In this document: positions 3,804 to 7,207 of the stretch, one piece after another
Position numbering within the stretch: the stretch's first letter is position 1
How the letters are laid out: every line of letters starts with the position of its first letter
Origin: a virus
Taxonomy: Duplodnaviria > Heunggongvirae > Uroviricota > Caudoviricetes
IMG/VR virus record: IMGVR_UViG_2703718769_000012
DNA length: 7,207 bases
Direction: 5' to 3' (one strand)
Position numbers and translations under genes: made by a program
Notes under the pieces: generated by a model
What the model was told of the DNA's origin: nothing
What the model saw: only the letters and a program-made list of their open reading frames with translations
The model's database searches: none

Positions 3804-4214
3804 TTAGCGTGGTAAGATCTGTGTAGTTTTCTGGATGCTTTCAGTAAATAGTAATGAATTATCAAAGGTATAGTAATATCTTTTTTGTTCGTGGATATTT
3901 GTAACCCACCGAAAAACTCCTGCTTTAGCAAGGTTTCTTCTGTATTCCTGAAATGTGATCTCTCTGGATTTCAGCTTATTAGAGGTCGTTTCTATAAGAT
4001 GCCTATCCTTTGAAAATTTGACAGACACAATGTTTTTTAGGCCCTTTAATAACACTGTATTATCATTTTTTAATACAATATGAACATTCTCTGTGGCTAA
4101 ATAGTAAATGTAATGTGAGACATTGTGACGTTTTAGCTCAGAATAAAACCATTGATAGTTTAAATCGTTTCGAACTTTATCAAATATTTGTTTAAAAATG
4201 ACTACCTGATCCAT
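3804..4214 (-). CDS. ydfO: DUF1398-family prophage protein (YdfO-like), function unknown
   Basis: 136 aa from the ATG at 4212-4214 ([23 protein letters not shown]...), which has GGAAGG 7 nt upstream. The ORF track start at 4229 adds 5 codons. Matches YdfO of Qin in length and, as I recall, sequence. Confidence 0.8.
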
Positions 4215-4439
4215 AGATAAACCTTCCATGTGATATGAGGGGGCGTAGTCTGCACGATTATCTAAATTGCTTCAATCTGGTCTGACCTGTTTTCTGAGCA
4301 ATTCAGTAATGTCACTCTTTTCTTTGTTTGCTTCAGAAGAAACTCTTTTTTCTGAGCACAGTCTCCGGCGGCAGGCTTCAATGACCCAGGCTGAGAAATT
4401 GATTATTTGACGTGGTTTGATGGCCTCCACGCACGTTGT

Positions 4440-4689
4440 GATATGTAGATGATAATCATTATCACTTTACGGGTCCTTTCCGGTGATCCGACAGGTTACG
4501 GGGCGGCGACCTCGCGGGTTTTCGCTATTTATGAAAATTTTCCGGTTTAAGGTGTTTCCGTTCTTCTTCGTCGTAACTTAATGTTTTTATTTAAAATACC
4601 CCCTGAAAAGAAAGGAAACGACAGGTGCTGAAAGCGGGCTTTTTGGCCTTTGTCGTTTCCTTTCTCTGTTTTTGTCCGTGGAATGAACA
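4440..4689. other. Lambda-type cohesive-end site cos (cosQ, cosN, cosB)
   Basis: Near-identical to my memory of the lambda genome ends. Right-end sequence ...GATGATAATCATTATCACTTTACGGGTCCTTTCCGGTGATCCGACAGGTTACG, then the 12-nt cohesive end GGGCGGCGACCT (4501-4512), then cosB with three CGTTTCC-core elements (about 4554-4561, 4614-4622 inverted, 4652-4660) corresponding to R3/R2/R1. Confidence 0.9.
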
Positions 4690-5235
4690 ATGGAAGTCAA
4701 CAAAAAGCAGCTGGCTGACATTTTCGGTGCGAGTATCCGTACCATTCAGAACTGGCAGGAACAGGGAATGCCCGTTCTGCGAGGCGGTGGCAAGGGTAAT
4801 GAGGTGCTTTATGATTCTGCCGCCGTCATAAAATGGTATGCCGAAAGGGATGCTGAAATTGAGAACGAAAAGCTGCGCCGGGAAGTTGAAGAACTGCGGC
4901 AGGCCAGCGAGACAGATCTCCAGCCAGGGACTATTGAGTACGAACGCCATCGACTTACGCGTGCGCAGGCCGACGCACAGGAGCTGAAAAATGCCAGAGA
5001 CTCCGCTGAAGTGGTGGAAACCGCATTCTGTACTTTCGTGCTGTCGCGGATCGCAGGTGAAATTGCCAGTATTCTCGACGGGATCCCCCTGTCGGTGCAG
5101 CGGCGTTTTCCGGAACTGGAAAACCGACATGTTGATTTCCTGAAACGGGATATCATCAAAGCCATGAACAAAGCAGCCGCGCTGGATGAACTGATAACGG
5201 GGCGCACTTTGACGGTGACCAGAGCGGCACGGTGA
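4690..5235 (+). CDS. nohA: Terminase small subunit, lambda Nu1 homologue with a replaced C-terminus
   Basis: 181 aa, MEVNKKQLADIFGASIRTIQNWQEQGMPVLRGGGKGNEVLYD... matches lambda Nu1 as I recall it through ...KAMNKAAALDELI. The last ~12 residues (TGRTLTVTRAAR) are read out of frame from J-derived DNA. Sits directly downstream of cosB. Confidence 0.9.
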   Translation: MEVNKKQLADIFGASIRTIQNWQEQGMPVLRGGGKGNEVLYDSAAVIKWYAERDAEIENEKLRREVEELRQASETDLQPGTIEYERHRLTRAQADAQELKNARDSAEVVETAFCTFVLSRIAGEIASILDGIPLSVQRRFPELENRHVDFLKRDIIKAMNKAAALDELITGRTLTVTRAAR

Positions 5236-5497
5236 ATGGTGTCACGCCGCCAGCAGTTCAGCACCTGACCGCAGAAGTCACCGCAGACAGCGGGGAATAC
5301 CAGGTGCTGGCGCGCTGGGACACGCCGAAGGTGGTGAAGGGGGTGAGCTTTATGCTTCGCCTGACCGTGGCAGCGGACGACGGCAGTGAGCGGTTGGTCA
5401 GCACGGCCCGGACGACGGAAACCACATATCGCTTCACGCAGCTGGCGCTGGGAAATTACAGGCTGACAGTCCGGGCGGTAAATGCATGGGGACAGCC
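5199..5497 (+). pseudogene. Internal fragment of tail host-specificity gene J (about 100 codons), no 5' or 3' part
   Basis: Frame beginning near 5199 reads ...GAHFDGDQSGT(V)NGVTPPAVQHLTAEVTADSGEYQVLARWDTPKVVKGVSF...[23 protein letters not shown], which I recognise as an internal stretch of lambda gpJ. It is out of frame with Nu1 upstream and stf downstream. The ORF-track start at 5232 is a GTG within this fragment. Confidence 0.7.
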
Positions 5498-5794
5498 GGT
5501 GCACATACCCATTCGATGACATTTGTTTCAGGTGGTTCCAGTGGTGCTCCGGGAAGTGGATCACCTGATTATTCTAAATACAGTGTTAACACTTCTTCTG
5601 CAGGCGCTCATACGCACTCTGTATCGGGTACTGCTGCAAGCGCAGGTGCACACGCACATACTGTCGGTATTGGTGCTCATACGCACTCCGTTGCGATTGG
5701 TTCACATGGACATACCATCACCGTTAACGCTGCTGGTAACGCGGAAAACACCGTCAAAAACATCGCATTTAACTATATTGTGAGGCTTGCGTAA
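5486..5794 (+). pseudogene. 3'-terminal fragment of side tail fibre gene stf (C-terminal ~100 codons)
   Basis: Ends ...[32 protein letters not shown], the lambda Stf C-terminus as I recall it, with GAHTHS/GAHAHT histidine repeats. Stop overlaps the tfa start (TAATG). The ATG at 5486 lies inside J-derived sequence and has no convincing Shine-Dalgarno. Confidence 0.75.
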
Positions 5795-6369
5795 TGGCAT
5801 TCAGAATGAGTGAACAACCACGGACCATAAAAATTTATAATCTGCTGGCCGGAACTAATGAATTTATTGGTGAAGGTGACGCATATATTCCGCCTCATAC
5901 AGGTCTGCCAGCAAACAGTACCGATATTGCACCGCCAGATATTCCGGCAGGCTTCGTGGCTGTTTTCAACAGTGATGAGGCATCGTGGCATCTCGTTGAA
6001 GATCATCGGGGTAAAACGGTTTATGACGTGGCATCAGGGGACGCGTTATTTATTTCTGAACTCGGTCCGTTACCGGAAAATGTTACCTGGTTATCGCCGG
6101 GAGGGGAATATCAGAAGTGGAACGGCACAGCCTGGGTGAAGGATACGGAAGCAGAAAAACTGTTCCGGATCCGGGAGGCGGAAGAAACAAAAAACAGCCT
6201 GATGCAGATAGCCAGTGAGCATATAGCGCCGCTTCAGGATGCTGTGGATCTGGAGATCGCAACGGAGGAAGAAACCTTGTTGCTGGAAGCCTGGAAAAAG
6301 TATCGGGTGTTGCTGAACCGTGTTGATACATCAACTGCACCGGATATTGAATGGCCAGCACTGCCGTAG
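5794..6369 (+). CDS. tfaQ: Tail fibre assembly protein (Tfa)
   Basis: 191 aa, [54 protein letters not shown]..., near-identical to lambda Tfa as I recall it. Coupled to the stf fragment by the TAATG overlap. Confidence 0.9.
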
Positions 6370-6466
6370 GGTAAAACATATAAATTCTATAATTAGATGT
6401 ATCTCTCCATTTACGGCAAGGAAGGGGGCTTGGAAGACGTAAAGCATCTCACACCGAGATTATTTT

Positions 6467-7057
6467 TTATATGTCAGGTGTCTGAAGTTTTGCTTTGGCT
6501 CTTAAAATGGTTTGCCGCGAGGTTTTGAATTCCCGGGCAATGGCACTTATACTTACACCTGACTTAATTCGTTCGAATACCACCTGTTTCTGTTCTTCAT
6601 TTAACACAGGTGGTCGACCAAAACGTTTCCCTGCGCCGCGGGCTCTTACTATCCCGGAATGAGTGCGTTCAAGTAAAAGGTCTCGTTCAAATTCAGCGAC
6701 TGCTGAAATTACGTGCATCATCATTTTTCCTGTTGGACTGGTCAGGTCAATGCCCCCCAATGCTAAGCAATGCACTCTGATACCTGTTTCGGTCAGTTGT
6801 TCCACTGTTTTCCTGATATCCATTGCATTACAACCAAGGCGATCCAGTTTTGTCACAATCAATTGATCACCACATTTCAGGCGAGCAAGCAACCGGTTAA
6901 AACCAGGACGCTCACTGGTTGCTGCTGAGCCGCTAATGTGTTCTTCGATTATTTGCTGAGGTTTGATTTTAAAACCTGCACTTTCGATTTCCCGGCGTTG
7001 ATTTTCGGTGGTCTGATCCAGCGTTGATATCCGACAGTAAGCAAAAATTCGAGACAT
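6467..7057 (-). CDS. pinQ: Site-specific DNA invertase, serine recombinase of the Hin/Gin/Cin/Pin family
   Basis: 196 aa. N-terminal catalytic motif Y-C-R-I-S-T-L-D-Q (catalytic Ser11), resolvase-type catalytic domain, C-terminal HTH ([20 protein letters not shown]). Appears intact. Lies next to tfa, as Pin genes do in e14, Rac and Qin. Confidence 0.93.
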
Positions 7058-7207
7058 AGTGAGACTCTATACGAAATTGGTGTTCATATCATAATGCATC
7101 TCAGAAAATAATTTTGATTATTTTTGTGCATATTTGTATGTACACGTTCGAAAATAAACGAATGCGTATGCAACCCCGTAACGGTGATGCTGCCAACTTA
7201 CTGATTT

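Follow-up and report, generated by a model that had tools for sequence, protein, structure and literature searches.

The stretch of DNA considered here, a 7,207-nucleotide window taken from a virus record of the Caudoviricetes (IMG/VR IMGVR_UViG_2703718769_000012), carries on its minus strand, at 6467..7057, the gene pinQ, which encodes a small serine recombinase of 196 amino acids that is annotated as the DNA invertase Pin. The window is the right part of the Escherichia coli cryptic prophage Qin. Our analysis makes it very likely that pinQ originated as tnpR, the resolvase gene of a Tn3-family mini-transposon that is 834 bp long and lacks a transposase gene. This mini-Tn3 has decayed in cis, and its protein may well have been retained for DNA binding, with little or no catalysis. 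An initial annotation, made from the DNA alone, had instead taken PinQ for a catalytically intact Pin-family invertase without an obvious invertible segment.

Tn3-family ancestry of pinQ and the boundaries of its element

PinQ contains a Resolvase domain (PF00239, E=3.6e-36) and an HTH_7 domain. It shares 38% amino acid identity with PinE, 38% with Gin and 33% with γδ resolvase, as against 78–84% with Tn3-family TnpR proteins, and the Pin-family label does not survive this comparison. Members of the Hin/Gin/Cin/Pin invertase family are far closer to one another than 38%. Proteins with 78–84% identity are plentiful on enterobacterial plasmids and chromosomes, and the genes for two of them, P0014 (84% amino acid identity) and P0100 (78%), were, in every context that was read, divergent from and about 160 bp away from a gene for a DDE_Tnp_Tn3 transposase of 994 amino acids. 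The P0014-type unit (L004, L005, L006 and L008) is an element of 3815 bp with 38-bp inverted repeats at both ends, a TAATA target duplication at the L008 copy, and a plasmid annotation as a Tn3 family transposase plus a recombinase. Positions 6428-7137 of the window are, over a 712-bp alignment, 82.3% identical in nucleotides to the part of this transposon that comprises its res region, tnpR and right terminal inverted repeat (IRR); the alignment passes the pinQ stop codon, enters the terminal repeat and ends there. NCBIfam was uninformative, with no family above its cut-off (the top one, the Mpi invertase family, reached 86 bits where 272 are needed).

The IRR of the pinQ element lies on the plus strand at 6424..6458 (GGGGGCTTGGAAGACGTAAAGCATCTCACACCGAG, with its outer end at 6424) and aligns with the 38-bp repeat of the 3815-bp transposon, GGGGTCCGCTTGGAAAACGGAAAATATCCCACGCTAAG. 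Directly beyond it is AGGAA (6419..6423), one copy of a 5-bp target site duplication, and the same AGGAA stands just outside the left repeat in the Qin copy of strain FORC 064 (L003 8659-8663), which gives an element of 834 bp; K-12 has this AGGAA also and shows the same element structure. A match of this kind at fixed positions has a chance of about 1 in 1024, and TTCCT was found on both sides in at least 72 of the 104 viral-contig loci having both flanks, across all of which there is one arrangement only. The left-repeat relic, TGAGTCCGCCCGGAACTCGAAAAACAAACCGAGTTAAAG, faces inward 162 bp upstream of the pinQ ATG and retains 26 of the 38 positions of the intact left repeat; it falls outside the window and was found in Qin copies free of the insertion sequence IS1, in K-12, in mEp460 and in L014 and L015. 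Two of the features expected of Tn3-type elements, a terminal repeat of about 38 bp of the GGGG type and a 5-bp target duplication, are present at pinQ. If two more bases are counted in from the tip of the degenerate left repeat, the direct repeat reads as 7 bp, CAAGGAA, at L003 7818-7824 (the first copy, equivalent to window 6417-6423) and 8657-8663; this may reflect a 5-bp duplication beside a mutated repeat tip, or something else.

A tblastn search of the window and of five related loci with TnpA turned up no match to a transposase gene, and the element is non-autonomous, as is its closest counterpart in structure. The latter is an intact sister mini-element of 852 bp on the plasmid pAPEC-O1-ColBM (L142 2549-3400), with perfect repeats, a clean res, arginine at position 76 of the recombinase and no transposase gene. 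The 5' region of this sister element, from the left repeat to tnpR, was found at a coverage of at least 80% in 97 plasmid records. The 852-bp unit adjoins a RelE/ParE toxin-antitoxin pair, and many large plasmids of E. coli share its 5' region; the unit may be a mobile multimer-resolution cassette. Two contigs of 1 kb that encode P0003 (L017 and L018) have a left half equal to the plasmid mini-element and a right half equal to the Qin copy with its tfaQ flank, and may have arisen by true recombination or as a chimera of assembly through the tnpR sequence that both have in common; just their left part, confirmed at 100% identity on plasmids, was used.

From the repeats and the duplication we conclude that the present arrangement probably goes back to a single ancestral transposition of a mini-Tn3 into the phage b region. 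An element with the layout left repeat, res, tnpR and IRR would have transposed once between tfa and ydfK of an ancestral lambdoid phage, doubling 5 bp (AGGAA/TTCCT) as it did so.

Active site, recombination sites and selection

In the protein, the position equivalent to R71 of Tn3 and γδ resolvases is occupied by cysteine. Codon 76 (6830..6832, minus strand) reads TGT, where relatives have the arginine codon CGT, and in ungapped alignments Cys76 stands opposite R71 of the Tn3 and γδ resolvases and the arginine of Gin and PinE, the motif LDRLGR having become LDRLGC in PinQ. Serine at codon 11 (TCA, 7025..7027, minus strand) is the nucleophile, equivalent to resolvase S10 and an invariant alignment column; the equivalents of Y6, R8, S10, Q14, Q19, R45, D67 and R68 (Tn3 numbering) are all kept, as are the core residues Y7, R9, S11 and R73 in PinQ's own numbering, and the equivalent of D36 is E39, which is glutamate throughout the subfamily. 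On this alignment PinQ is not fully catalytically intact, as it had seemed to be, and an inactivating substitution, which the initial annotation had itself named as counter-evidence, is arguably present. Tn3 resolvase with R71A or R71K does not recombine and cleaves at least 1000-fold more slowly, while binding and synapsis persist (PMC2794168). R71 is located in the assembled active site (PMC4499144), and a general-acid role has been proposed for this arginine (Keenholtz et al. 2013, cited through PMC4499144).

Among the top 120 homologue clusters arginine is found in 115 and cysteine in five, all of the latter being prophage types (PinQ/PinR and L014). TGT is present in 120 of 120 viral-contig copies, which were retrieved by a pattern that permitted the codon for either arginine or cysteine, and K-12 PinQ also has Cys76. 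The sole prophage copy with arginine that we saw is L016 6001-6591, in a prophage at prfC of E. coli GCA_910593615.1, where the res-proximal region and most of the coding sequence are 100% identical to the plasmid transposon and the flanks are of the prophage type; this looks like a gene conversion from plasmid to prophage that would have restored Arg76. A separate variable position is codon 115 (6713-6715), which in the window encodes histidine, as in 30 of 98 viral-contig copies, and in most copies and the transposon TnpR proteins encodes glutamine. It aligns with the histidine of Gin and PinE in helix E. Mutations that make invertases hyperactive and Fis-independent map at that position of helix E. 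Relative to the window protein, K-12 PinQ differs by R3Q, H115Q and V159A.

The recombination sites have fared worse than the protein. A decayed res together with the pinQ promoter occupies 7058..7182 on the minus strand and aligns with the res between tnpA and tnpR of the intact transposon; its remnants lie approximately at 7058-7101 (site III and promoter), 7099-7130 (site II) and 7145-7170 (site I, the crossover site). In intact transposons five to six half-sites lie within two mismatches of TGTCCGAAA, most of them within one, and together form site I (26 bp), site II (32 bp) and a further site close to the promoter. None of the half-sites in the window is within one mismatch of TGTCCGAAA, three have two mismatches, and site I no longer has a recognisable left half. 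When the prophage element is compared with the plasmid mini-element segment by segment, identity is 68% for the left repeat, 67% for the spacer, 58% for site I and 66% for site II, as against 88% for the last 44 bp before the ATG, 83% for the coding sequence and 79% for the right-repeat region. Because the former values approach the identity at synonymous sites, 59%, the ends and recombination sites seem to have drifted at about the neutral rate, which the promoter region and the protein did not. Neither in the 45.9-kb mEp460 genome nor in the window was there a second res or repeat that could serve as a partner site (one dimer-site match, where 1.75 are expected). Since it lacks a transposase, a usable site I and a partner site, and since its left repeat has decayed, the element would be able to do nothing in cis. 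On this account the left repeat, site I and site II would have decayed after the insertion, and the recombinase would have gained its change from arginine to cysteine at the R71 position.

The gene itself has been under constraint. The two cysteine lineages (PinQ type and L014 type) share 84% protein identity and differ at 21% of synonymous sites, with a ratio of non-synonymous to synonymous divergence (dN/dS) of 0.38 (Fisher p=6e-4), and 98 close copies hold 17 synonymous and 15 non-synonymous polymorphisms, which gives a pN/pS of 0.27 for the PinQ type (p=1.7e-4). The full open reading frame of 196 amino acids is intact in 110 of the 120 viral-contig copies, and this recombinase without the R71-type arginine is kept by viable lambdoid phages and by roughly half of the complete E. 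coli genomes that were searched. These comparisons indicate that pinQ is not a dead gene and that both its promoter-proximal region and its coding sequence are under purifying selection. PinQ would then have been retained for a role that does not use its own res, the likeliest being sequence-specific DNA binding of a regulatory or interfering kind in which PinQ itself exchanges strands rarely or not at all, and we infer such a trans-acting role with weak or no catalysis. Since its arm and recognition helix are nearly identical to those of the plasmid TnpR, PinQ should still recognise sites of the TGTCCGAAA type, which are now found on plasmid-borne elements and not beside pinQ; any recombination that it promotes, including the reported inversion of the P segment of the e14 prophage, would have to be in trans. 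A bioRxiv report of PinR-dependent transcriptional repression is a loose fit with a DNA-binding role.

Absence of an inversion switch and the alternative explanations

There is indeed no inversion switch beside pinQ. The layout first described, of an stf tip and tfaQ with a full-length recombinase gene on the opposite strand, is borne out by coordinates and domain matches. There is a single tfa and a single stf tip, and since the gap between tfaQ and pinQ is only 97 bp, no inverted tfa'/stf' cassette fits between them. Sites of the gix/pix type, which had not been visible by eye, did not emerge from searches with patterns and 26-mers either, and in the window and the whole mEp460 genome no hix/gix/pix-like 26-bp site was found above chance. 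The core AAACCNNGGTTT, with up to two mismatches allowed, gave three matches in the window and none in 5480-7207 (4.7 expected by chance), and the best 26-mers had 8–11 mismatches to both e14 pix sites, the invertase consensus and the family site I, shuffled sequence doing equally well or better. Inverted repeats in 4200-7207 are short, imperfect and chance-like only, an adjacent invertible segment with two inverted 26-bp crossover sites is present neither in the window nor in the mEp460 genome, and orientation polymorphism was absent from the 104 loci having both flanks. Nor was an alternative tfa'/stf' cassette just outside the window, which had been thought possible, found in complete Qin copies and phages, where ydfK comes next; longer Qin copies continue from pinQ with ydfK, ynfT and ydfJ, none of which is a tail fibre gene.

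The initial annotation had left two options: that the switch is a relic, or that PinQ acts on sites elsewhere in the genome. In the former, pinQ would be what remains of a Hin/Gin/Pin-type switch whose stf'/tfa' cassette and crossover sites were lost as Qin decayed, and the heavy deletion of Qin at this place (which has joined Nu1, part of J and the tip of stf), the annotation of pinQ and its tfa neighbourhood all lend it some appeal. We nevertheless regard it as extremely improbable, since viable lambdoid phages have the order J, lom, full-length stf, tfa, pin (minus strand), a ydfK-like gene, int and xis, with a pin region that is 97–99% identical. These phages include mEp460_ev081, Tritos, 2H10, Turner, Kati and the PhiR series, and intact prophages with an stf of about 1100 amino acids (full-length stf ranging from about 1000 to 1140) have the same layout, down to the exact 97 bp between tfa and pin. 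Because the same insertion is found in viable phages, decay of Qin is not the reason for the missing cassette, and the identical layout in intact phages refutes a lost tail fibre switch. The 97 bp are made up of phage flank, target duplication and transposon repeat, identity to true invertases is just 38%, and no inversion polymorphism is reported for Qin or rac (PMC12529663), in line with its absence from our loci. That pinQ was, in all probability, never part of a tail fibre switch explains why it has no invertible segment and no gix/pix site for a neighbour. The premise of a lost switch thus falls, the absence of an adjacent segment or site stands, and action elsewhere is what a 2025 study has claimed (PMC12529663).

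Several observations weigh against our own reading of pinQ as a captured resolvase gene with little catalysis. Scores against solved structures favour Gin (E=2e-30) over γδ resolvase (E=3e-22), so that the TnpR subfamily as a whole resembles the invertases, and site I of this subfamily measures 26 bp (12-2-12), as do invertase crossover sites. The left repeat lies outside the window, with an IS1 between, and is degenerate, its tip reading TGAG and not GGGG. A search of the phage collection and of 5,426 genomes of E. coli found no empty site, in which the tfa flank would be joined directly to the ydfK flank; as no record spans that junction the insertion can be neither dated nor confirmed by an empty site, and it is deduced solely from the repeats and the duplication. 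Purifying selection, moreover, proves a function and not which one.

A further point of this kind comes from Kirigo et al. 2025 (PMC12529663). There PinQ is an active invertase in trans that recognises the e14 pix sites and flips the 1797-bp P segment, so that a chimeric StfE2 blocks adsorption of phage T2. Survivors of T2 that carried pCA24N-pinQ had the P segment inverted, inversion measured by quantitative PCR was 30% in the wild type and 88% with PinQ overproduction, and deletion of stfP, stfE or e14 abolished the effect. Such a model, to which the invertase-like site I and the match to Gin also lend weight, fits the transposon ancestry of pinQ and contradicts only the inference of little or no catalysis; if PinQ itself catalyses the e14 inversion, Cys76 is no bar to catalysis. 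We hold it to be possible, though not probable. The K-12 PinQ of that study carries Cys76, at a position that is essential in Tn3 resolvase (PMC2794168), and a pinE mutant was locked in the non-inverted state even though pinQ and pinR were present (PMC12529663), with the caveat that the deletion may also remove the enhancer. In the main text of the article we found no catalytic-serine mutant, in-vitro assay or test of PinQ without PinE activity. On direct comparison the pix half-sites match the family half-site TGTCCGAAAnCG at only 5–7 of 12 positions, and free phages, in which it is hard to see what would select for a function specific to e14, conserve the element. An unbiased invertase would be expected to settle at roughly 50:50, and inversion of 88% lies above that equilibrium, which suggests selection or bias.

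It could also be argued that pinQ is simply a dead gene, a neutrally drifting remnant kept through recent insertion or by hitch-hiking with the prophage: the catalytic arginine has been lost, res and the left repeat have decayed, tnpA is absent, and some copies are truncated or altered at otherwise invariant positions (Q15K, G52S and G147D). This we consider unlikely, as dN/dS and pN/pS both differ significantly from 1, most copies keep the full reading frame, the promoter-proximal segment is conserved at 88% where synonymous sites stand at 59%, and phenotypes have been reported for deletions of pinQ and pinR (PMC12529663 and the bioRxiv report).

Returning to a retained resolvase, a recombinase under purifying selection without the R71-type arginine would be either an exapted, non-catalytic, sequence-specific DNA-binding protein or an enzyme that recombines through a non-canonical active site, a proposition that we put forward tentatively and with some doubt. 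Exaptation could mean that PinQ, with its DNA-binding determinants near-unchanged, represses or poisons the res/TnpR of incoming plasmid elements of the Tn3 family, or alternatively that it biases the PinE invertase of e14 by binding the pix sites. In both cases a domesticated transposon resolvase would have to take the central place in a revised model of recombinase-activated anti-phage defence.

Earlier publications already present PinQ as an orphan and propose that it acts at other places in the genome. The literature searched yielded no mention of a Tn3 mini-transposon as its source, of the terminal repeats and target duplication or of the change from arginine to cysteine. The element is a non-autonomous derivative of the Tn3 family in which the resolvase has been retained, and this matters in several respects. 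The label 'DNA invertase Pin' is attached to pinQ, pinR and, by transfer, many plasmid tnpR genes, and a new class of anti-phage defence has been founded on PinQ as an invertase (PMC12529663). A captured Tn3-family resolvase on a dead mini-transposon would explain the missing segment without a lost switch, and the claim that PinQ inverts the e14 P segment now calls for a catalytic control. PinQ is in effect a natural experiment on the extent to which serine recombinases can work without the R71-type arginine, and a large clade of Rac/Qin-like lambdoid phages is marked today by what appears to be a single ancient transposition.

Surrounding genes and comparison with known systems

The gene order of the window is essD, ydfR, rrrQ, rzpQ, cspI and its neighbours, ydfO, ynfO, nohA, a J fragment, the stf tip, tfaQ and pinQ, with annotations carried over from 100%-identity matches in many complete genomes. 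The C-terminal tip of stf (102 amino acids, 5486..5794, plus strand) matches the Phage_fiber repeat, is annotated in Qin as a partial tail fiber protein, and is fused upstream to the J fragment by an old Qin deletion. Deletion joints can be followed through 4690-5794, from a complete Nu1 domain (nohA) to an Ig-like fragment of J (5232-5519) and on to the last 100 or so amino acids of stf (5486-5794); a longer stf fragment is retained in K-12 Qin, and the Qin of the window was therefore deleted differently. Just upstream of nohA, at 4490-4690, is what we take, from the lambda sequence, to be a lambda-type cos region with cosN/cosB; in it are GGGCGGCGACCT and, at 4609-4623 and 4651-4665, the two arms of a perfect inverted repeat of 15 bp. 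The tail fibre assembly gene tfaQ (5794..6369, plus strand; Caudo_TAP, E=2.4e-43) is a phage backbone gene outside the recombinase element, and its homology to lambda tfa stops near 6356-6359. In phages Tritos (L002 5001-5923), HannyBb and PhiR63_1 the fibre genes differ, yet all of them share the final 110 bp of tfa together with the flank and the mini-Tn3, beginning at window position 6259, which would thus be a mosaic recombination joint inside the 3' end of tfa.

At its other end the window runs into the left end of an IS1 inserted in the mini-Tn3 remnant (7183..7207, plus strand), the 25-mer GGTGATGCTGCCAACTTACTGATTT being the opening of a 768-bp element that encodes IS1 transposase in L030. 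The insertion lies 125 bp upstream of pinQ, within the res remnant, and parts pinQ from the left repeat of the mini-Tn3 and from ydfK, so that it may alter pinQ expression. Among the best matches listed from complete E. coli genomes, none extends past 7182.

The anti-phage system described by Kirigo et al. 2025 (PMC12529663) concerns the same gene as the pinQ of the window and differs in that e14 is no part of the window; a search of its main text found no mention of Tn3, a transposon origin of PinQ or a change of a catalytic residue. With Hin, Gin, Cin and PinE, PinQ has in common that it is a small serine recombinase, that its gene adjoins tail fibre genes, that its family has a 26-bp site I geometry and that Gin is its top solved structure. 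Unlike theirs, the pinQ gene has no flanking segment or crossover sites and points toward tfa instead of away from a segment, and the conserved arginine has been lost. Invertases of that family also use a recombinational enhancer in cis that is bound by Fis at very degenerate sites and usually falls within the 5' end of the invertase gene.

Far closer are the 3815-bp tnpA-res-tnpR transposons on plasmids of E. coli, E. albertii and E. marmotae (L004 and L008), whose TnpR has the same length and the same architecture of Resolvase and HTH_7 domains as PinQ. The arm and recognition helix are nearly identical (an 11-residue stretch, and K/R-T-S/T-RQTILR), and both the upstream res region and the 38-bp repeat after the stop codon are homologous. 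The pinQ element differs from them in having no transposase gene, degenerate half-sites of which those of site I are the worst, Cys76, and a phage or prophage as its host replicon. A more distant likeness is to TnpR of Tn3 and γδ resolvase. To our knowledge TIMEs, as described, carry no gene. The 852-bp plasmid mini-element, finally, has the same architecture as the 834-bp prophage element, with a homologous spacer from the left repeat to res and Tn3-type repeats at both ends. The plasmid copy has perfect repeats, clean sites I and II and Arg76, whereas the prophage copy is decayed; conversely, it is the prophage copy that has the 5-bp target duplication, and that on pAPEC-O1-ColBM has none.

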